From NCBI GenBank assembly GCA_964575955.1, contig CAZNTG010000003.1, positions 72,662-136,661 of the forward strand: DNA of 64,000 bases, written 5' to 3'. The translations under genes were made by a program, and so were the position numbers. The notes beneath the pieces are model-generated. The model did no database searches and was not told where the DNA came from. It was given only the letters and a program-made list of their open reading frames with translations. The DNA comes from an uncultured Thermoproteaceae archaeon. GTDB lineage: Archaea > Thermoproteota > Thermoprotei > Thermoproteales > Thermocladiaceae. This document shows positions 1-31,695 of the stretch, piece by piece (positions within the stretch are counted from its first letter, which is position 1; every line of letters starts with the position of its first letter).

Positions 1-504
1 ATACCTACAAGAAGACTAGAGATTGAAAGTTTTGCAATATGTGATGGTGGTGAGATACCTGTAGAGATGTTTGAAATAGATGAAGATCATGTTAAGAAAT
101 TCTTAAAGAAGGTATTTCACAAGTTTGGAAGAGTTATAGAAAATGCTAATGGTATATCTTTAGAGTTTAGCATATGTTCATGGAGATTTGCAGTTGGATT
201 AGTATATCTATTAGCAAGATTTGGAATTAGATCAAGAGTTGTATCTAGCGATGATGGTAGTTTTAAGGTTATCATAGACATACCTGAGAGTGTTGAGAAA
301 TTTGTAAGATTTATAGATCTTGAAGAGTCTATGTACAAGTTTGAGACTTATCGTAAGAGCGTTATCGTTCCTATTCCAGGAACTGATCTTGCGTATGTTA
401 AGATTGTTAAGATTGAAGATGTTGGTGAACGTGATGTCTATGATTTTGAAGTTCCTCCGTTAGAGAACTTTATTGCTGGTTGGTCACCAATATGTTTACA
501 TAAT
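1..504 (+). mobile_element. Intein 1 in NrdD (C-terminal part only)
   Basis: VYDFEVPPLENFIAG (block F) and ICLHN|T junction; LAGLIDADG-type block H remnant LVYLLARFGIRS. Confidence 0.9.
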
Positions 505-3222
505 ACTGGTGCTATCGGTCTTAATGCTATTGATCTATACTTAGCACCATACATTGCACATGACAAGCTTGATTATGAGCAGGTTAAGCAATGTATTCAG
601 AGGTTCATATATAATCTAAACTATACTACAAGAGTTGGATATCAGACACCATTTAGCAATGTAACATTCGGTCTAGGTGTTAAGGAGTACTATTCAGCAC
701 CTGCATATGTTGGTGGTAGGATTGTTGGTAAGTTGGGAGATTATGTTGAGGAAGCTAAGCTAGTATTGAAAGCATTTTGTGAAATACTTCTTGAAGGTGA
801 TGCTTATGGTAGACCGTTTAGTGTTGCTGGTGATGAGATTACAATAGCTAGATTAGATGGTAGGTTAGTGATAGATGAGATTGGTAAAATTATTGATAAG
901 CTATTTGAAAAATATGGAGACTATGTTCTAAAGTTTGGAAAATATGAAATATTACCATTGGCTGGTCTTGATGTTAATTTGGAAGTATTAGGTATCTCCA
1001 ATGCAGTACCAACATTCCAAAAGGTGCTATATTTGGCAAGACATAGAGAGGATAGTGTTATTGAGATTAAGACTGATAGAGGATTTACAATCAAGGTTAC
1101 AGATTCACACTCTGTACTTGTATGGGAAGGTGGTAAAATAGTTGTTAAGGAGGCTAAAGATTTGAAGATAGGCGATGAACTTGTTGCATTAATATCACTT
1201 CCAGAGTTTGGAAGAGTAGATAGGTATGAGTATGTGAATATTGCAAAACTATTGAGAGAACATGTTCAAAATGTTGAGGATGTGTATGTTAAATCTCGTA
1301 GTGGAGAAGTATTACCATTATCTGAAGTTGATGTATCAGTATTGACAGATGAGGATGAGATATTTACAACTAGTGATAGGGTTGTAGTACCTGCGGTTAT
1401 TAAGCTAGATGAAGAGTTTAGCTATCTACTCGGAATATTCACTATGAGAGGTATTTTAGAGAATTGTAAAGTCGTATTTAGATTTAATATTGATGAGTTT
1501 GATATTGCTAAGCGTGTAGTATCGATATTTGAGAATGTGTTTGGAATTAAGCCAATATTAAGATTCTATGGTGATAGTATACTTGTTGAGGTAGATTCTA
1601 GAATAGTTTCAGAATTGTTTAAGATATTTAATGTTGATCATATACTTGAATCTTCACCAATAGTTAAGATTTCATTTATATCAGGTATTGTAGATTCTAT
1701 ACAAGACTTAGAGCTTGATAATGATGAAGTTGTTTTGAAGTTTAGTAATAAGAAGTTGATGTATCTCATAACTTATCTACTTCTAAGTCTTGGAATTGAA
1801 GTTTATGCAGGTGATAGTGGTCTAGTATTGAGGTATAGTCCTCTATATAGAGAATTCTCTAGATTTAGCATCAAGCTATCTAAGACATGTACAGGTAAGT
1901 CTGTGAGTTGTGTAGTTGCTGATGGTTGTGGATTTGTAGGCAGGTTGAAGGTTGTTGACATTAGAAGGGTTGAGTATAGTGGTTATGTGTATGACTTTAC
2001 TACATCTAGTGAAAACTTCCTTGCAGGTGTTGTAGTTGTACATAACACATTCCCAATACCAACAATAATACTTACTAATGATTGGATTAAGATAGTTGAA
2101 AGTGATGCAGAGCTTAGTGATCTATTTTGGAGATGTGTTGCTGAGCGTGGAAGTTTCTACTTCCTAAATAGTCTGACAAGTGATAGAACAGGAATATTCA
2201 GCTTCTGCTGTAGATTGACTGTTGATGTTAGAAAGGTTGTAGAGTATCTACATATGAGTAGAGGTGTATGGGCATTACCACCAAGTACTGGAAGTATTGG
2301 ATATATAACGATAAACCTGCCTAGAATTGCTATTGAAGCATCTATGAGAGGAGATGCTGAGAAGTATGTAGATGAACTACTTTATGAGTATATGAATATT
2401 GGTAGAGAAGTTCTAAATATACTCAGAGCAAGATATACAAAATTGCATAAGTTAGGTTACTATCCACTAACCAGACTGTACATAGATGAGCATGATCCAT
2501 TTAAATACTACTATAATACTATTGCAGTTACAGGAATGGCAGAGTATGTATCTATAATATTGAATGAGCCTAAACTATGGTTTAGAGAGATAAGTTTTGA
2601 TGGTAGAGAATATGTTAAAGATGTTATTAGAGTATATAAGAGAACTTTTGAATATATGGGTAAGATATTGGAAGAGTTTGAAGAAGAGGATAGAGTATTA
2701 TACAACCTAGAACAAGCACCTGCAGAGTCTAGTAGTTATAAGTTTGCTAGACTTGACTGGGAGAGATATCCAAAGTTTAGAGAATTCATACCACACGGTG
2801 TTGATCCATTTACAGGACGTGAAGAGCCATATTACACAAGTCAGAATACTCCACCATATACATCATGGAGAATTCAAACACAGATAGCTGTTGAGTCTGA
2901 AATTCAGAAGTTATTTACAGGTGGTGTAATGAAGCACATATTTGTCCATAGACCTGTAAAGAGTGAGAAAGTTAGAGAGTTGGTACTGTCTATATGTGAG
3001 AAGACTGATATAGTATATCTAAGCTATGCACCAACACAGAGTATATGTCTAGATTGTGGATATAGAACTACAGAGGTAATTTGGGAATGTCCAAAGTGTG
3101 GTAGTAAGAATGTTGAACAGTGGACTAGGATTGTGGGATATTATAGACCTGTTAGGAGTTGGAATCCAGGTAGAAGAACAGAATTTGCTATGAGAAGAGA
3201 TTTTGCACAAGATTTTGCATAA
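1..3222 (+). CDS. nrdD: Anaerobic class III ribonucleoside-triphosphate reductase with two inteins (5' partial)
   Basis: Frame is open from base 1. QTPFSNVT, GRPF|TFPIPT after splicing, SFCCRL, TGSIGYITINLPR, YNLEQAPAES, CLDC..CPKC zinc ribbon and glycyl radical motif RIVGYYRPV. Confidence 0.96.
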   Translation: MPTRRLEIESFAICDGGEIPVEMFEIDEDHVKKFLKKVFHKFGRVIENANGISLEFSICSWRFAVGLVYLLARFGIRSRVVSSDDGSFKVIIDIPESVEKFVRFIDLEESMYKFETYRKSVIVPIPGTDLAYVKIVKIEDVGERDVYDFEVPPLENFIAGWSPICLHNTGAIGLNAIDLYLAPYIAHDKLDYEQVKQCIQRFIYNLNYTTRVGYQTPFSNVTFGLGVKEYYSAPAYVGGRIVGKLGDYVEEAKLVLKAFCEILLEGDAYGRPFSVAGDEITIARLDGRLVIDEIGKIIDKLFEKYGDYVLKFGKYEILPLAGLDVNLEVLGISNAVPTFQKVLYLARHREDSVIEIKTDRGFTIKVTDSHSVLVWEGGKIVVKEAKDLKIGDELVALISLPEFGRVDRYEYVNIAKLLREHVQNVEDVYVKSRSGEVLPLSEVDVSVLTDEDEIFTTSDRVVVPAVIKLDEEFSYLLGIFTMRGILENCKVVFRFNIDEFDIAKRVVSIFENVFGIKPILRFYGDSILVEVDSRIVSELFKIFNVDHILESSPIVKISFISGIVDSIQDLELDNDEVVLKFSNKKLMYLITYLLLSLGIEVYAGDSGLVLRYSPLYREFSRFSIKLSKTCTGKSVSCVVADGCGFVGRLKVVDIRRVEYSGYVYDFTTSSENFLAGVVVVHNTFPIPTIILTNDWIKIVESDAELSDLFWRCVAERGSFYFLNSLTSDRTGIFSFCCRLTVDVRKVVEYLHMSRGVWALPPSTGSIGYITINLPRIAIEASMRGDAEKYVDELLYEYMNIGREVLNILRARYTKLHKLGYYPLTRLYIDEHDPFKYYYNTIAVTGMAEYVSIILNEPKLWFREISFDGREYVKDVIRVYKRTFEYMGKILEEFEEEDRVLYNLEQAPAESSSYKFARLDWERYPKFREFIPHGVDPFTGREEPYYTSQNTPPYTSWRIQTQIAVESEIQKLFTGGVMKHIFVHRPVKSEKVRELVLSICEKTDIVYLSYAPTQSICLDCGYRTTEVIWECPKCGSKNVEQWTRIVGYYRPVRSWNPGRRTEFAMRRDFAQDFA
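820..2046 (+). mobile_element. Intein 2 in NrdD (409 aa, Ser-start, LAGLIDADG-like insert)
   Basis: Starts SVAGDE, block B IKVTDSHSV, ends VYDFTTSSENFLAGVVVVHN|T; removal restores GRPFTFPIPT. Confidence 0.93.
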
Positions 3223-3224
3223 TT

Positions 3225-3803
3225 TTAATATCTTGGAGCTGACTTTATAATTTCTAAAGCCTGTACAACTCTTCTAAGAACTTCTAGATCACGTATCAAT
3301 CTCTCGTATGTAGTATCATCAATCTCGCCTCTATTCTTAGCTGATTCTATCTCTTGTAGAAGTATGTCTATCTTTTCAGTACTTATAGTCATGGTATCTA
3401 TTGATCTTATCCAATGTTCTTTAATCATATTTTCAATCTCGTCATACTTACGTTTCAACTCTTCGTATAGTGTGCTTATTCTTGATATAACTTCATTTAA
3501 TGTTGCAAGTCCTGAACTGTATGTTTCTTCATCTATAATCTCTAACTCTCTCTTAACTCTCAACATCTCTATCATCTGTTTTGCAAGATCTAGCTCATTT
3601 TTCAATTCTTCAATCTTTGAGTATATTAATGCATTATCAATATCCCATCTCCTCTTCAATTCTTCTACAGCTCTCTTATACTCTTGCCATAGTTGTGAAA
3701 CTTTTTCAAGAAGTTGTTTATACTCTTCATACTTCCTATTTACAAATTCTTGAATTGCCTCTATATACGTGCTTAATCTTCTTTCTAATTCTGATGTCGA
3801 CAT
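3225..3803 (-). CDS. Coiled-coil protein with CdvA-like G-x-I-x3-Y helical-hairpin motifs
   Basis: All-helical heptads; KRELEIIDEETY and RGEIDDTTYERL motifs; paralog of the adjacent gene. Confidence 0.75.
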   Translation of the reverse strand: MSTSELERRLSTYIEAIQEFVNRKYEEYKQLLEKVSQLWQEYKRAVEELKRRWDIDNALIYSKIEELKNELDLAKQMIEMLRVKRELEIIDEETYSSGLATLNEVISRISTLYEELKRKYDEIENMIKEHWIRSIDTMTISTEKIDILLQEIESAKNRGEIDDTTYERLIRDLEVLRRVVQALEIIKSAPRY

Positions 3804-3812
3804 AGTATATCA

Positions 3813-4568
3813 CTAACTTAGAAGACTTTCAAGCTCACGTTTAAGTCTCTCATATACCTCACGACTAATCTTACCATCTCTTAACAATTCGTCAAGTCTT
3901 GTAAGTATAACTCTCATCTTACCAACTTCAGGTGTTGGTACAACTGTCAGCAATTTCTTAACATGTGATATTATTCCACCTGAAATATATTCAAATCTTC
4001 TATACAACTCATCAAACACTCTTCTAAGTTTTGATAATCTATTCTCAATCTCTTCTCTAAGTTTACTATATTGCTCATCATCTAGTATTCCAAGATCTTT
4101 ACGATAATCTAACTCTTTTAAATCTAGTTCATACATCGATATTATTCTTTTTAATAGTTCTAGATGATGTTCTATCAATATTCTCTGCTTATCAAATTGT
4201 GTTCTAGTATTATTAACATATTCTTCATATTCTCTCCACTTTCTATCAAGTTCTGAAACTCTATTTTCAAAATCTTGAATAATTTTTTCAAGATCTTCAA
4301 TAATCATATCTTCATACTCTCTAGAAGGCTTTACAGCTACTTCTACAGGTTTTGTCTCTACAGGTTTTACTTCTGCACTTTCTATCGTCTGAACTTGTTG
4401 TGTTTCTGGTTTTGTCTCTATAGCAGCCCTATGTCTAATATATATTGGACATGTAATGTAGTCAAGAAAGCAATACCATGCATATGGATTAACTGGCTTG
4501 TTAGTAAATGAGCATATATACATATCTCCCTCTCTCCTTAATGCTGGACATACAGCACTTCGAGACAT
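3813..4568 (-). CDS. N-terminal Cys4 (putative Zn) domain fused to a CdvA-like coiled coil
   Basis: CPALR..YIC..WYC..TCPIY, EVKP-rich linker, RKDLGILDDEQY and DGKISREVYERL. Confidence 0.75.
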   Translation of the reverse strand: MSRSAVCPALRREGDMYICSFTNKPVNPYAWYCFLDYITCPIYIRHRAAIETKPETQQVQTIESAEVKPVETKPVEVAVKPSREYEDMIIEDLEKIIQDFENRVSELDRKWREYEEYVNNTRTQFDKQRILIEHHLELLKRIISMYELDLKELDYRKDLGILDDEQYSKLREEIENRLSKLRRVFDELYRRFEYISGGIISHVKKLLTVVPTPEVGKMRVILTRLDELLRDGKISREVYERLKRELESLLS

Positions 4569-4573
4569 ATGTA

Positions 4574-5305
4574 TTACCTAGACATGGGGTGATATATACT
4601 ATCCTCATTTAATAAAGATACAGTTTTAATATAGTCTAAATGTGTTCCAATATCGATAACATCATCTTCTAAACATTCTAAATCTATGTAACTAACATTA
4701 ACTTTTCTACTAACAAGCTCTCTAAATAGAATATTCATATCTACCATATCATACATAGTTTCAAGATGTTCCAATATTGGATATATGGCTTCAAGATTTA
4801 TGTAATATATTCCTGATATAGTACTAAATTCAGGTTTTTCAACCCATCTCAATTCTCCATCACTTACAATAATGCCATATTTAAACTTTCTACGTATAGT
4901 AAATATTGTAAGTATACTACCACTATCTATACAAGTTTCAACTTTCTTCATAATATTTTCAATACATCGTTTAGATATGTATAGATCCCCGTTAATTAGA
5001 ATTATGTTCTTAAACCTATACTTCAAATATACATTTTTTAAATGTCCTGCTGTACCTCTTAATTTAGAATCTACTAATGTTTCAACATTTAGATATTTTA
5101 GATATCTTTCGTATGGATATGCGCAATATCCTAATACTATGACAATTTTAGAATCTTTCAATACTTCTCTTATATTTTTCACAATGTTTAGTAATGTGCT
5201 GAATTTTCTAGATATAGGTACGAGAGGTTTTGGTGTTATGTATGTTAATGGTTTTAATCTCTTACCTGCACCTGCTGCTAATACTACTACATCTATAATA
5301 GTTAT
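4574..5305 (-). CDS. Sugar-phosphate nucleotidyltransferase (NTP_transferase), probable ATA/ATT start
   Basis: In-frame LAAGAGKRLKPLTYITPKPLVPI lies upstream of the tracked GTG; GTAG, INGD, EKP and DIGT motifs follow. Confidence 0.85.
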   Translation of the reverse strand: MTIIDVVVLAAGAGKRLKPLTYITPKPLVPISRKFSTLLNIVKNIREVLKDSKIVIVLGYCAYPYERYLKYLNVETLVDSKLRGTAGHLKNVYLKYRFKNIILINGDLYISKRCIENIMKKVETCIDSGSILTIFTIRRKFKYGIIVSDGELRWVEKPEFSTISGIYYINLEAIYPILEHLETMYDMVDMNILFRELVSRKVNVSYIDLECLEDDVIDIGTHLDYIKTVSLLNEDSIYHPMSR

Positions 5306-5309
5306 GCAC

Positions 5310-5636
5310 CTATAGGTAGTCTTCTAGACCTATCTTCTTTAATTTAGCTCTAACTTTTTCAACATCTTTCTCAAGTTTCTTAGCTTCCTTAACTATGTCT
5401 ATCTCTGGAGCTTCTTCATGTCTCTTACTCTTTAGACATTTTCCATCAGGTGATAGTGCACGTGCCATACATGATGCAAATTGACATCTAGCACCTATGC
5501 ATTGATCATTTGTTAATGTACATATTACCTGTACATTACTTCCTCTTCTAATTATTCTAAGACACTTCTTTAAACATCTAAAATCTGGACATCTTGGTCC
5601 TTCACATTCTTTTAGTCCTTCACTATTGGTTTTCAT
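5310..5636 (-). CDS. Cys-rich hypothetical protein (putative metal binding)
   Basis: Nine Cys in the N-terminal 70 aa followed by a charged helix; in an operon-like run. Confidence 0.7.
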   Translation of the reverse strand: MKTNSEGLKECEGPRCPDFRCLKKCLRIIRRGSNVQVICTLTNDQCIGARCQFASCMARALSPDGKCLKSKRHEEAPEIDIVKEAKKLEKDVEKVRAKLKKIGLEDYL

Positions 5637-5677: not shown

Positions 5678-6640
5678 TTACTTTTCTAAAACCTGGCTTT
5701 GCAATATTTCTGCTTCTCTTCTACACCCATTTTCAAGTAGAAATCTGTATACTTCATATGGTTCTGGTACATTACTACCACCTCTCTTAGTACATTTTAA
5801 TGCTGAGTATGCAGATGCTATCTTTCCAGCAATTTCTGGTTCTACACCTAGAATTCTCATGTATGTATATACTGCTGAATATACATCACCAGCACCTGTA
5901 GTATCAATAACATTAACTTTAAATGGCTGTATTAGATATTTAGAATCTTCAATAATTATAAGACTACCTCTATCTCCTAGAGTTATTATAAATTCCCTAC
6001 ATTTATCATATAGATCTCTAATCTTATGTTCAAAATTTTCTGTCTTAAACATTAGATATGCTTCTTGAAAATTCATGAACATATAGTTAAATCTTATATC
6101 AAACTTTTCAATAAAATCTATGCCTAGTTTAGCAATTTCTGTTCTAAGTCCTAAAGATATAGATTTTACATTTATACTACTAATCTTCTCTAACACCTCT
6201 TTCAATACTTCAATCTCAGATAATACTACATGTACATGATCTACATTTTCTAATACTTTCAAATCTTCATCCGTCAATGTTAGATATTTATTAGCACCTG
6301 AATTTCCTATCATATACTTCACACCTCTATTATCAACTATGACTATTACAAATCCTGTTGTCTCATTTACTCTCTTTATATGTTTAATATCAATGTTGAG
6401 AACTTTCAATCTATCTATCAGGAAATCTCCAATCACATCTAGACCACATGAAGCTATTAGAATTGAGTATCCGCACAATTTTGATATTGTTATTGCATAG
6501 TTTGTAGCTGCACCTCCTGGAGCTATATACGCTTCTCTACATGTTTCTCTAGAGTCTGGCTTAGGAATTTCATCAACTCTTACATATATGTCAAGATTTA
6601 GATGACCTATAGATGCTACTCTAGGTTTCACATTATCCAA
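5678..6640 (-). CDS. PfkB family carbohydrate kinase
   Basis: PGGAATN and DTTGAGD signatures. Confidence 0.92.
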   Translation of the reverse strand: MDNVKPRVASIGHLNLDIYVRVDEIPKPDSRETCREAYIAPGGAATNYAITISKLCGYSILIASCGLDVIGDFLIDRLKVLNIDIKHIKRVNETTGFVIVIVDNRGVKYMIGNSGANKYLTLTDEDLKVLENVDHVHVVLSEIEVLKEVLEKISSINVKSISLGLRTEIAKLGIDFIEKFDIRFNYMFMNFQEAYLMFKTENFEHKIRDLYDKCREFIITLGDRGSLIIIEDSKYLIQPFKVNVIDTTGAGDVYSAVYTYMRILGVEPEIAGKIASAYSALKCTKRGGSNVPEPYEVYRFLLENGCRREAEILQSQVLEK

Positions 6641-6651
6641 CTTTTAAATAC

Positions 6652-7188
6652 TTGAAGATATTTATTAAAGATGGTAATCTCGTGAGGTTTAGTGAAGAAC
6701 ATGTTGAAAAGCTTCTCAGGATTCGTAAGATGTTAGAGAGGAAGATTAGAAGATTGAAAGCTCAATTAAGATTTTATGAAGAACTTCTAAGATATGTAGA
6801 TTCAATACTTAGACAATCATCAATAACAACAGCTGATAAATATCTTATTGAGAAGCAAAAGATTGAAGAGAGGATTAGTAAGTGTGTTGATATTGAGAGA
6901 AGAGATGAATATGTTGAAATTAGGCTAAAATTTCCATTGAAGAAGGATGATTGGAGATTTAGAAAATATGTTAAAGAGAAGTATTTAGAAAAATTTAAGA
7001 GTGAAGATCTTGAGAGAGTTAGAGAAGGTGAGATTGAGAAGGAGTATATGTTTGATTATGAGGTAGTCACTAGAGAGGATGGAACTATTGAAAGTTTAAA
7101 ATTGTGGAATTGTGATAATATTAGACTTGAGAGGATTGTCAAGATTTTAGAATATATATGTAGAAGAGCTAGACAAGAGTCAGGTTAG
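6652..7188 (+). CDS. Hypothetical protein with N-terminal coiled coil (start uncertain)
   Basis: Long ORF with coding-like composition; overlaps the ligase stop. Confidence 0.65.
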
Positions 7189-9636: not shown

Positions 9637-10230
9637 TTAGTCTACTATTTTAATCTTCTCTTTCAAACTATTTAATATTTCTAGTAGATTTTCAATGCTG
9701 AGTCTATTCATTATAAATTCTCTCAATAGTATCAGTTCTGTAGTGCAGTATGTTATTATGTTTGTATCTATTCCCTTATAGTTTAGTATTATGTATGCAT
9801 AAGATTCTTCATTTATTTCTCTATATACTTCAATATTCTTTAAAATATTTCTTAACTCTTTATCTTCTATTTTTGACATGTTTTCTCTACCAATTATGTC
9901 TATTCCAGAGCATACATACTCGACTTCTAGTATGCATGGTGGTTTATACATGTCTACTATCAGCATCTTCCTACTTTTCAATTTCTCATTTGAGTACTTC
10001 TTAACGTATTCGTATGGTATTGATGTTACGTATGTTAATTCTCCTCTAAATCCTGCATATATACATACTGTTGCTGGTTCTTTAGTGATCTTTCCTGGTG
10101 ATGTTAATATCATTGCAAATGCGTTACATCTATCTCCAAATGTTCTAAATACGTATATTGTAGCTATGTTAAATATCTTATTTAATTTTTCTTCTGATGC
10201 GCTTACAGCTATTATAAATGCATCAATCAT
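9637..10230 (-). CDS. Hypothetical protein
   Basis: 197 aa ORF co-oriented with cyaB and lig. Confidence 0.6.
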   Translation of the reverse strand: MIDAFIIAVSASEEKLNKIFNIATIYVFRTFGDRCNAFAMILTSPGKITKEPATVCIYAGFRGELTYVTSIPYEYVKKYSNEKLKSRKMLIVDMYKPPCILEVEYVCSGIDIIGRENMSKIEDKELRNILKNIEVYREINEESYAYIILNYKGIDTNIITYCTTELILLREFIMNRLSIENLLEILNSLKEKIKIVD

Positions 10231-28962: not shown

Positions 28963-30228
28963 CTATCTCAATAATCTTAATGCAATATCTACATATATCT
29001 TTGAAGCATCTACAACATCTTTCAATCTTACATACTCGTCAGCCTTATGTGCAACATTTACATCACCAGGACCGTATGTCACAGCCTGTATTCCAACTTC
29101 TTGATAATATCTCGTGTCTAGACCACCTGTACATACAACCTTTCTAACATCTATATTTAGAATATCTTTTATAGATTTTTCAAGTGTCTTAACAAGTTCT
29201 ACATTTGGATTTACGATAGCTGGTGAAGATTTTTGTACTGTCTTAATATTTATTTGGATATTCATTTCTCTAGCTTTTGAATATAGATAGTTATATAATT
29301 CCTGCTCTACATCATCTACATTTTCTTCAGGTATTACTCTTCTATCTATTGAAAATGAGAAGTATCCTGTAACCATGTTTATCTTACCACAACTCTTTAC
29401 ATCACCTCCAAAAACTATTGTAGCTTTATTACCTCCTTCAATATCATACTCATACTTACTTACAACACTTTCAACCCTGCTTTTCAACTCGTCTATTATC
29501 TTGTTTAGAAATTTAATACCAATTTCAAATGCGTTTACTCCGAGCCATGGTGTAGCTGCATGTGCCTGTTTTCCAAATATCTCAACTATAAGCCATATCA
29601 ATCCTTTATTTCCAATAACTATCTTATCTAGCCCCGTTGGTTCACATACAATTACGAAGTTTGGTCTAACTTTCATCTCTCTAACTAAGTATCCTGTTCC
29701 TGTAATTCCACCAATCTCTTCATCAGGAACTAGAGCTATTTCAACTCTACCATTTAGAATATTTTCAAAATCTTTCAAGGCTAATAGCGTCAATATTGCT
29801 GATGTTATACCGCCCTTCATATCATCACTACCTCTACCATATAGCTTATCGTCAATTATTACTGGTTTGAATGGGTCTGTAATAGTCCAACCTGTTCCTG
29901 GAGGTACAACATCATAATGACCATTTAGATGAAGTACTCTATCTCCAGATCCAACATTTGCAATAAGTATATATCTAGGATATTCTACATATTCAGGTAT
30001 ATGCTTTCTAACATACTCATCAGGAACTTTAATTATCTTTGAAGATATTCCATACTTACTTAATAGTTCTTTAACATAGTTACAAAATTCTAAGTATTTT
30101 TCACCAGGTGGGTTAACTGTTGGTATACTTACAAGATCTTTCAATATACTTTCAGCAATATTTTTCATATTTTCAATTTTTCTCAATATTTGATCTCTCT
30201 CAATCATGTATATATCTCTACTAACCAC
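28963..30228 (-). CDS. M20 family metallo-amidohydrolase (ArgE/DapE-like)
   Basis: NGHYDVVP, GRGSDDMKGG, PDEE, AHKADE. Confidence 0.92.
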   Translation of the reverse strand: MVSRDIYMIERDQILRKIENMKNIAESILKDLVSIPTVNPPGEKYLEFCNYVKELLSKYGISSKIIKVPDEYVRKHIPEYVEYPRYILIANVGSGDRVLHLNGHYDVVPPGTGWTITDPFKPVIIDDKLYGRGSDDMKGGITSAILTLLALKDFENILNGRVEIALVPDEEIGGITGTGYLVREMKVRPNFVIVCEPTGLDKIVIGNKGLIWLIVEIFGKQAHAATPWLGVNAFEIGIKFLNKIIDELKSRVESVVSKYEYDIEGGNKATIVFGGDVKSCGKINMVTGYFSFSIDRRVIPEENVDDVEQELYNYLYSKAREMNIQINIKTVQKSSPAIVNPNVELVKTLEKSIKDILNIDVRKVVCTGGLDTRYYQEVGIQAVTYGPGDVNVAHKADEYVRLKDVVDASKIYVDIALRLLR

Positions 30229-30728
30229 TATTTTAACATCTTATCTCTAATATTCTTGATATAAAGTTCGAATGTTTTTAATGCATAGTATTGATCTTCT
30301 GTTATTGACATATCTGGATTAATATTCATCATAATTCTTAAAGCTTCTTCACATTCTAAATTGTTTGAATATATTAAGTATGCTGATAGTACTGTTGGTG
30401 TTCTTCCAAGTCCACCAACACAGTGTACATATACTCTATATCCATCTTGTATAGATTTTTCGATCTTCTTACATATGTCTAGTAGTGTATATTCATCAGG
30501 TGAATATCCATCTTTTGTTGGATATCTATATATTTTCATATCTAAATTCTCAACTATTCTATATACATCATCTATAGACATATCTGCATAATATTCATAT
30601 TCCCAATCTTCAACTAGTGATATTATTATCTTAATATTTAAATTTCTAAGTTTTTGATAATCATCTTTAAGTGGTATACATCCTCCAGCAACTTTATCAT
30701 TAATCCAGTACATTCTTGGTAAGACCAT
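30228..30728 (-). CDS. Dual-specificity/tyrosine protein phosphatase
   Basis: HCVGGLGRT (CX5R) motif. Confidence 0.92.
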   Translation of the reverse strand: MVLPRMYWINDKVAGGCIPLKDDYQKLRNLNIKIIISLVEDWEYEYYADMSIDDVYRIVENLDMKIYRYPTKDGYSPDEYTLLDICKKIEKSIQDGYRVYVHCVGGLGRTPTVLSAYLIYSNNLECEEALRIMMNINPDMSITEDQYYALKTFELYIKNIRDKMLK

Positions 30729-30762
30729 ACTTATAATGTGTCTATACTACTACCTATTAATA

Positions 30763-31695
30763 ATGTATCCAAAGCGTATAGTTGTAGCAACTAGACCTAG
30801 CAAGCTATCTCTAATACAGACTGAGATTGCTATTAATTGGATTAGAAGATATTTTCCAGATATTGAATTTATAATTAAAACTTTCAAATCTACAGGAGAT
30901 AAAATACTTGACAAACCACTCTATGAGATTGGTGTTAAGGGAATTTTTGAGAAAGAGATTAATCTTGCAGTACTTAGAGGTGATGCTGACATTGCTATAC
31001 ATAGTTTGAAAGATCTTCCAGCATCTATAGATCCTAGACTAGAATTAGCATGCTATCCTCCAAGAGATAGTCCATATGATGTTCTTGTTGTTCCAAAGAA
31101 TTTTGAACCAGATATTGATAAGTTAGATAGAAATTCTAAAGTAGGAACTTCAAGTATTAGAAGAAAAGTATTTTTAAAATGTTTAAGAAGTGATATAGAG
31201 GTAGTACCAATTAGAGGCAATGTAGATACTAGAATAAGAAAGTTACTTAAAGGTGAGTGTGATGCATTGATAATAGCTGAATGTGGATTAGATAGATTGA
31301 GAGGTCATATTCCAGAAATTGAAGAGGTTAGATATTCGAGAATTAGTTTAGATAAAATACCGCCAGCACCTGGACAAGGAATAATTGTCGTTGTATGTAA
31401 GAGAGATGATGTAGATCTTCTAAAAATGTTAAGAGAATGCTCTCATAGAGAGACAACTATCGAAGCTATATGTGAAAGATCTTTCTTAAAATCATTTGGA
31501 GGTGGTTGTCATACACCTATAGGTTGTCTAGCTACATGCTCAGGAAATTTCTTAACGATAAGTGCATATTTTGCAGATAGAGAGACATATAGGATATATA
31601 GAGTATCTATATGTGGAAGTTCTGAAAATCCTGAGGAATTAGGTAGGAGATGTGCAGAAGAGTTGAAAAGATTAATAAAGAGTGGTGGTATGTAG
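30763..31695 (+). CDS. hemC: Hydroxymethylbilane synthase
   Basis: ATRPSKLS, HSLKDLP, GTSSIRR, RGNVDTR, GGCHTP. Confidence 0.96.
   Translation: MYPKRIVVATRPSKLSLIQTEIAINWIRRYFPDIEFIIKTFKSTGDKILDKPLYEIGVKGIFEKEINLAVLRGDADIAIHSLKDLPASIDPRLELACYPPRDSPYDVLVVPKNFEPDIDKLDRNSKVGTSSIRRKVFLKCLRSDIEVVPIRGNVDTRIRKLLKGECDALIIAECGLDRLRGHIPEIEEVRYSRISLDKIPPAPGQGIIVVVCKRDDVDLLKMLRECSHRETTIEAICERSFLKSFGGGCHTPIGCLATCSGNFLTISAYFADRETYRIYRVSICGSSENPEELGRRCAEELKRLIKSGGM

Follow-up and report, generated by a model that had tools for sequence, protein, structure and literature searches.

A stretch of 64,000 nucleotides (nt), hereafter the window, was analysed from an uncultured Thermoproteaceae archaeon that the GTDB places in the Thermocladiaceae (assembly GCA_964575955.1, contig CAZNTG010000003.1, positions 72,662 to 136,661 of the forward strand). 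Close to the start of the window, two adjacent genes on the minus strand encode P0002, a protein of 251 amino acids (aa) with a small four-cysteine domain, and P0001, a 192-aa paralogue lacking such a domain (Table 1). The pair fits two CdvA-like families that have already been described for the Thermoproteales, arCOG03733 and arCOG03734.

A first-pass annotation, made by a model from the letters alone, had proposed these genes as tandem CdvA-like coiled-coil paralogues and candidates for a division or cytoskeletal module. Both open reading frames (ORFs) were found as it described them, including their separation by 9 bp, and all of the motifs that it quoted were present in the translations: WQEY/WREY, KRELEIIDEETYS/RKDLGILDDEQYS, YEEL/FDEL, an aligned histidine (H130/H202) and RGEIDDTTYERL/DGKISREVYERL. 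The turn motif, given there as G-x-I-x3-Y, was off by one and was corrected to G-x-I-x4-Y (P0002 G232-K-I-S-R-E-V-Y239).

Table 1. The gene pair, its domains and spacers, and the adjoining upstream gene (positions in the window)
Feature	Position	Strand	Basis
P0002, Zn-ribbon-bearing CdvA-like paralogue, 251 aa, fits arCOG03733	3813..4568	(-)	ORF and translation
P0001, CdvA-like paralogue without zinc ribbon, 192 aa, fits arCOG03734	3225..3803	(-)	ORF and translation
P0002 residues 1-50, small four-cysteine domain ("Zn ribbon" in the literature)	4419..4568	(-)	Invariant Cys and AlphaFold2
P0002 residues 51-82, flexible linker rich in Pro/Glu/Lys/Thr/Val	4323..4418	(-)	Low pLDDT, variable among orthologues
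P0002 residues 83-251, CdvA-like helical domain	3816..4322	(-)	AlphaFold2, hhalign, HMMER
9-nt spacer between P0002 and P0001, coding strand TGATATACT	3804..3812	(-)	Sequence
5-nt spacer between the upstream gene and P0002	4569..4573	(-)	Sequence
Sugar-phosphate nucleotidyltransferase gene (Pfam NTP_transferase), upstream, same strand	4574..5296 (upper end approximate)	(-)	Pfam

The paralogous proteins and their published families

The arCOG families were described by Makarova et al. (2024; mBio 15:e00335-24, PMC10936438), where arCOG03733 combines a Zn ribbon with a CdvA-like domain, arCOG03734 has no Zn ribbon, and such proteins are presented in the abstract as likely components of an uncharacterised division system. 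Table S3 of that paper gives an HHpred probability of 99 to Pfam CdvA for two Thermoproteus tenax proteins, and Table S1 has entries for Pyrobaculum sp. WP30, with consecutive accessions, under each of the two arCOGs. A tandem homologous to that of the window, with both ORFs, was found in the genome record of WP30 (CP012158.1; locus L015, E 5e-36). The link to the arCOG tables is indirect, running through the name of the WP30 genome and the gene order, and on this basis P0002 and P0001 would be this organism's copies of arCOG03733 and arCOG03734.

The likeness covers the build of the proteins, with a four-cysteine domain, a linker and CdvA-like helices in one and no cysteine domain in its paralogue, as well as the adjacency of the genes and the Thermoproteales lineage. 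In a sample of 151 genomes from the phylum, which includes the organism's own, strong matches were confined to three families, termed f1 (the window's own), f2 and f3. The window differs from the published members in that its lineage is uncultured, low in G+C (about 31-34%) and absent from the members in part 9 of Table S1. Moreover, the paper describes a "long coiled-coil-like region" as the connector, whereas here a disordered tether of 30 residues precedes the long helix. Neither "heterodimer" nor "multimer" occurs in the main text of the paper. The "uncharacterised scaffold" of the first-pass annotation had been put forward as undescribed; the same reading is already in print there. The pair is already known, and the window adds a further divergent member of the described families.

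The two proteins were also compared with each other. BLASTP gave 50.4 bits (E 2e-12) with 43 of 162 positions identical, and hhalign joined the P0001-family and P0002-family alignments over 164 columns with a probability of 98.8% (E 6.7e-17). By these comparisons P0001 and P0002 are tandem paralogues beyond reasonable doubt, as had been annotated; the alignment, annotated as essentially free of gaps over about 100 aa, has 11 gap positions and is not quite gap-free. A tree built on the domain common to both proteins grouped the ribbon-less copies from f1 with those from f2 in one clade (support 100/99), which dates the duplication before the split of these two families of the window's order and makes it, by this tree, an ancient one. 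The f3 copies lay on long branches and their placement was unsure.

AlphaFold2 models of both proteins (mean predicted local distance difference test, pLDDT, of 77.9 for P0002 and 78.4 for P0001) followed a common plan of a very long helix, a second helix folding back and then a short hairpin. In P0002 the long hairpin is formed by residues 83-158 and 164-209 and a short SHOCT-like hairpin by residues 213-230 and 236-250. The corresponding helices of P0001 are 3-86 and 92-137 for the long hairpin and 142-157 and 163-188 for the short one. The motif G-x-I/L-x4-Y was found at three of the four turns of the two proteins, and at the first turn of P0001 a glutamate replaces the glycine. Before the helices the models have the small cysteine domain in P0002 and nothing in P0001. 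No PRC barrel was detected, in line with the first-pass annotation: the Pfam PRC model matched neither protein and neither AlphaFold2 model contains one. Scans of P0001 and P0002 against Pfam and NCBIfam returned no family over its cut-off, and neither protein has an enzymatic domain.

The cysteines C7, C19, C33 and C40 of P0002 were invariant in 17 of 17 aligned relatives. W111, H202, G232 and Y239 were also invariant in the P0002-family alignment. When the two families were merged into one alignment of 47 sequences, W111 and Y239 (P0002 numbering) were the only invariant positions left. The four-cysteine domain was modelled with three strands and two helices, all of them short (pLDDT about 57-75), and probably binds a metal, zinc. 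It is followed by the tether of ~30 residues, which has a pLDDT below 50 at residues 53-80 and varies in both length and sequence among orthologues (alignment columns about 55-115). The cysteine domain and flexible linker that the annotation had assigned to one of the two proteins were thus borne out. A search of the ESM Atlas with the cysteine domain yielded no usable match. The same head was seen outside the pair at the N-terminus of a 301-aa Ser/Thr protein kinase, P0113 (Pfam Pkinase, 123.9 bits), and in separate frames of 153 and 412 aa from two genomes that belong to the same family as the window (G059:C1:733060-733221 and G123:C3:41419-41589).

Conservation and gene neighbourhood of the pair

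At E<=0.001, self included, 17 proteins were matched by P0002 and 12 by P0001. The close relatives of both come from uncultured Thermoproteota only. Those of P0002 extend to Pyrobaculum and Thermoproteus, with 33-39% identity to Thermoproteaceae members, and its named relatives are records of Thermoproteota, Thermoproteaceae, Pyrobaculum and Thermoproteus. In a library of 1.84 billion representative proteins the family profile gave only 151 matches at the same threshold.

The ribbon-bearing gene was followed directly by the ribbon-less paralogue in all 15 complete related loci; a sixteenth locus, cut by a contig end, stands outside this count. The adjacent pair was likewise present in 19 of 19 genomes of f1, f2 and f3 (the organism's own and 3/3 of f1, 13/13 of f2 and 2/2 of f3). 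The other 132 sampled genomes gave no match stronger than E 2.3e-10, with weak matches in 20 of them. The synteny in relatives, whose lack the first-pass annotation had named among its refuting conditions, is conserved. Thermoproteaceae loci show a 4-nt overlap of the two ORFs (for example, 5998-6723 and 6720-7274 in L015), which suggests coupled translation, as against the 9-nt gap seen here.

The spacers of 5 and 9 nt are a sign of an operon. The shorter one, which parts the nucleotidyltransferase gene from P0002, is too small to hold a promoter of its own, and the nucleotidyltransferase gene is probably co-transcribed with the pair. Its presence there is not constant: NTP_transferase stood beside the pair in 16 of 17 neighbourhood sources, in none of five further genomes (two of the other genus of the window's family, one of a third genus and two of f3), and was absent from locus L019. 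The wider neighbourhood runs in the order CYTH, DNA ligase, an oppositely oriented ORF of 178 aa, PfkB kinase, a Cys-rich ORF of 108 aa, nucleotidyltransferase and the pair. Thermoproteaceae and the clade of the window retain it, as does one further genus in part; L019 and four of the five further genomes do not. The constant unit is the pair only. Flanking synteny was considered as a functional clue and rejected, the upstream block not being constant. All ORFs with a Pfam match between window position 1 and about 12000 belonged to families other than ESCRT-III and Vps4, which agrees with the annotated lack of such neighbours, as does the lack of a Snf7 match in the genome reported below.

Several neighbouring genes had features of their own. 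An anaerobic ribonucleotide reductase gene (window 1-3222, plus strand; Pfam NRDD, 339.8 bits in two stretches) is convergent to the pair, its stop lying 2 nt from that of P0001. It is interrupted by an intein (Intein_splicing in two stretches, best at residues 304-660), and weak LAGLIDADG matches at the very start of its ORF, which runs off the window, suggest a second one. In the nucleotidyltransferase gene, tblastn placed the conserved N-terminus VVVLAAGAGKRLKPLT (GAGKRL) upstream of the first ATG/GTG/TTG (window 5183-5300, minus strand). The frame is open upstream and has no canonical start codon, and the GTG right after the stop of the preceding gene belongs to another frame. Either a non-canonical start (ATA/ATT) or a frame error in the assembly would account for this, and with the true start uncertain the upper coordinate in Table 1 is approximate.

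The 108-aa ORF between the PfkB kinase and nucleotidyltransferase genes (window 5310-5636, minus strand) is rich in Cys in its N-terminal half, has a tail that is charged and helical, gave no Pfam or NCBIfam match, and was conserved in 10 neighbourhood sources and one further genome. The DNA ligase and CYTH genes are flanked by two conserved ORFs, also with no Pfam or NCBIfam match, of 178 aa (6652-7188, plus strand) and 197 aa (9637-10230, minus strand). The 178-aa ORF keeps its position and opposite orientation in 14 sources.

Relation to CdvA and the division genes of the organism

In CdvA, a C-terminal peptide binds the winged helix of CdvB. The merged 47-sequence profile of the pair was compared with 24 aligned canonical CdvA proteins taken from the phylum's genomes. 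Hhalign aligned the two over 107 columns with a probability of 74% (E 2.8e-5), in register at both turns. HMMER cross scores between the families and CdvA were 25.4 and 21.1 bits, while decoys reached at most 7.2 bits when reversed and 7.6 bits when shuffled. In addition, four weak genomic matches of the merged profile coincided with Pfam CdvA matches. From the merged-profile and decoy results, the helical domain appears to be related to the coiled-coil domain of CdvA; the signal is weak and above controls, and the relation was judged real but distant, inside a broader set of SHOCT-like helical hairpins. The CdvA similarity of the first-pass annotation stood at the level of profiles, with no Pfam-level match, and CdvA itself was listed in none of the fold searches.

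According to Drobnic et al. (2026; PMC12818579, crystal and cryo-EM structures), CdvA consists of a PRC domain plus a coiled coil of three helices and forms antiparallel, double-stranded filaments with longitudinal contacts by the coiled coil and lateral contacts by the PRC domain. It is a homopolymer whose repeat unit is an antiparallel dimer, and an "E3B peptide region" is mentioned for it in the same paper. With CdvA (arCOG04054; PRC and PF18822; Sulfolobales and other TACK archaea) the pair shares a helical domain with G-x-I-x4-Y turns and an antiparallel dimer, here a predicted one. Unlike CdvA, it comprises two distinct subunits in place of one, has four helices with a break in place of a three-helix domain, and carries no ESCRT-III-binding tail, P0002 ending one residue past its last modelled helix. 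P0001 and P0002 are CdvA-like proteins and not CdvA orthologues, having no PRC barrel, no Pfam-level match and no ESCRT-III partner.

The short C-terminal hairpin, L-x2-L-L-R-x-G-K-I-S-x-E-x-Y-E-x-L-K, resembles a SHOCT unit and the C-terminal part of GvpG. All matches to these models were weak and P0002 stayed far below the curated cut-offs (SHOCT: E 0.78 and 10 bits, cut-off 27 bits), which speaks for resemblance and not membership, and the long 125-residue hairpin with its invariant tryptophan has no SHOCT counterpart. No NCBIfam CdvA model matched P0001 or P0002. Foldseek with the P0002 model returned nothing at E<=0.001, the best value being 0.75. PDB sequence searches with three profiles gave chance coiled-coil matches only (haemagglutinin HA2, syntaxin and CHMP1B, the last at E 0.087), with no CdvA chain among the rows shown.

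Hairpin repeats of the SHOCT/CdvA-like kind were also seen in very long proteins with phage tail tape-measure domains (P0105, P0112, P0131, P0135, P0141, P0160, P0167 and P0173). In genomes of a further family, f12, tape-measure-type frames of about 1204-1246 aa exceed the Pfam CdvA cut-off, so that a match to this model is not peculiar to proteins of division.

The genome of the organism (1.52 Mb, 94.7% complete) gave no match to CdvA, Snf7 or tubulin models, the tubulin search covering this genome only. No Snf7 match was obtained in any of 18 sampled f1-f3 genomes, which had at most one weak Pfam CdvA match (E 4.8e-4). Matches to Vps4_C in the organism's own genome occurred only within AAA frames of 554-566 aa, at about 25 bits. 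A 246-aa ORF on contig C2 (about 30106-30846; L021:1423-2163, plus strand) matches PRC faintly (E 0.034) ahead of CdvA-type hairpins that bear the same motifs as the pair, and hhalign aligned it with canonical CdvA over 169 columns (85.5%, E 5.7e-6). It is a candidate for a diverged PRC-barrel CdvA and would fit the diverged orthologues reported for Thermoproteales in PMC10936438. The premise of the annotation that the Thermoproteales have no recognised Cdv component is outdated in view of that report and of this candidate. The ORF is flanked by ORFs of 210 and 154 aa.

Crenactin was found in 19 of 19 pair-bearing genomes and in 56 of the 151 sampled, many of which have no pair. The phyletic check proposed in the annotation was answered in part: the families with the pair gave no Snf7 match and at most one weak CdvA match, and crenactin is spread far wider than the pair. 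In the organism's own genome the crenactin gene lies on contig C6 (L004:1261-2571, plus strand; Pfam Actin, 43.7 bits) and the pair on contig C3. It is followed by a 242-aa ORF (L004:2608-3336, plus strand) that NCBIfam arcadin-2 matches only weakly (E 7.7e-8, far short of its cut-off), and the two look like a diverged "arcade" cluster. An arcadin identity of P0001 and P0002 was rejected, as no arcadin NCBIfam model matched them at E<=1 and they are not in the crenactin cluster. Work on crenactin and arcadins is described as inconclusive in PMC10936438.

The predicted heterodimer and the possible role of the pair

Residues 81-251 of P0002 were modelled together with P0001 in three runs, alongside three controls. 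The heterodimer obtained ipSAE scores of 0.73, 0.72 and 0.72 (median 0.72), while the best control scored 0.00. Agreement between the runs was at least 73% of contacts, with a partner pLDDT of at least 78. The mark used is reached by 116 of 157 solved complexes and by 2 of 215 mismatched pairs, counts that are only a rough guide where own alignments are supplied. In the predicted complex the first helices run antiparallel and residues 110-114 of P0002 face residues 38-42 of P0001, which sets a pseudo-dyad at the tryptophan that is invariant in both families (W111/W39). The predicted interface residues were 62-65% hydrophobic, compared with 28-31% elsewhere in the helices. The heterodimer arm of the multimer comparison suggested in the annotation was thus favoured over the controls, and the prediction supports binding.

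We proposed that both genes would be translated from one transcript and that the long hairpins would pack antiparallel into a pseudo-symmetric 1:1 four-helix heterodimer centred on W111 of P0002 and W39 of P0001. The short terminal hairpins would stay free for end-to-end contacts, and the single four-cysteine head on its tether would recruit a partner or a surface. The pair may act beside the diverged PRC-barrel CdvA candidate on contig C2. The only pointers to a role in division are the relation to CdvA and the phyletic distribution. On balance, we give an even chance to the reading that the pair is a non-enzymatic scaffold of a Thermoproteales division apparatus working without ESCRT-III or FtsZ.

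A number of results weigh against a division scaffold. The narrower family alignments were aligned with CdvA by hhalign at only 4% and 20%. Pfam CdvA (PF18822, cut-off 30 bits) did not match P0002 at E<=1 and was not among the best 25 of 40 families for P0001, and at E<=0.1 it matched only 5 of the 47 family members (best E 0.0019). At the same threshold GvpG (PF05120) matched 35 of 47 (best E 7.4e-5) and SHOCT (PF09851) 14 of 47 (best E 0.002), so that a generic hairpin for oligomerisation is a possible reading of the helical motif. Fold searches returned generic hairpins only, below the noise level for helical models, with CdvA, ESCRT-I and ESCRT-III not singled out. The pair also has no PRC barrel, the part that makes the lateral filament contacts of CdvA, and its gene neighbourhood gives no pointer to division. 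Conservation at the predicted interface did not exceed that of the remaining helical positions (p 0.47 and 0.05), and close paralogues often score as partners and can pass the complex test; the prediction therefore supports binding without showing it. In the literature searched, arCOG03733 and arCOG03734 are named solely by Makarova et al., in the paper and its preprint copies.

The fit of the SHOCT and GvpG models to more family members than the CdvA model leads to the alternative of a generic SHOCT-type coiled-coil adaptor with no division role, which might, for example, organise or anchor the upstream PfkB sugar kinase and nucleotidyltransferase for sugar-nucleotide or envelope glycan synthesis. 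Such an adaptor would suit the nucleotidyltransferase gene lying only 5 nt from P0002 and the retention of the block of PfkB, small Cys-rich protein, NTP_transferase and pair in Thermoproteaceae and the window's own clade. It would also suit the weak tail of the library search, where 17 of 61 scanned matches carried SHOCT and 7 a listed CdvA match (2 over the cut-off). The upstream block is inconstant and the pair is always retained, and we consider the adaptor improbable, though deserving of serious attention. It was also considered that P0001 and P0002 do not bind each other and form separate homo-oligomers, their tandem arrangement merely reflecting the duplication. The predicted interface is pseudo-symmetric, with equivalent residues opposed around W111/W39, so the same packing is open to homodimers; its residues are not specially conserved, and CdvA itself is described as a homopolymer in PMC12818579. 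Since the copies have stayed strictly adjacent in all 19 genomes after a duplication that predates the f1/f2 split, the 4-nt overlap in Thermoproteaceae points to coupled translation, and the heterodimer score stands far above its controls, we regard separate homo-oligomers as a rather poor prospect.

Two further alternatives relate the pair to other cellular systems. Makarova et al. liken the domain architecture to Vps23/Vps37, and note that HHpred ties the CdvA hairpin to the steadiness box (PMC10936438). As in ESCRT-I, the subunits are paralogues that would join through long helices and helical hairpins. The pair could by this likeness, and by the predicted heteromeric helical assembly, form a stalk and headpiece like those of ESCRT-I, serving to sort proteins or form vesicles and not for cytokinesis. 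It has no UEV domain, however, and the genome has no partners from ESCRT-II or ESCRT-III. Neither sequence nor fold searches gave a match to ESCRT-I, with no ESCRT-I Pfam family among the matches listed (for P0001, the best 25 of 40). Together with the lack of a Snf7 match in the organism's own and the 18 sampled f1-f3 genomes and the confinement of Vps4_C matches to the AAA frames, this leaves an ESCRT-I analogue very unlikely. Accessory factors of the crenactin cytoskeleton, arcadin-like and serving cell shape instead of division, would explain why crenactin accompanies every pair and could find a precedent in the weak arcadin-2-like gene that adjoins crenactin in this genome. The much wider distribution of crenactin, the separate contigs and the lack of an arcadin match make this the faintest of the prospects considered.

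Returning to the division scaffold, its boldest form would have the heterodimer as the unit of a new cytokinetic filament in archaea from which ESCRT-III and FtsZ were lost, polymerising end to end via the SHOCT-like hairpins, with the cysteine head replacing the PRC barrel and the filament marking and constricting the division site together with the diverged CdvA. We hold this form to be unlikely; if it were true, the long-sought division machinery of the Thermoproteales would have been found.

The status of the question of how the Thermoproteales divide is unchanged by the window, and no discovery of a new kind is claimed. The analysis adds a decoy-controlled CdvA link, a phyletic table from another sample of genomes, an age for the duplication, and a controlled heterodimer model with a testable interface. 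That question is a long-standing one, and the pair is among the few lineage-wide candidates for an answer, already flagged in print.

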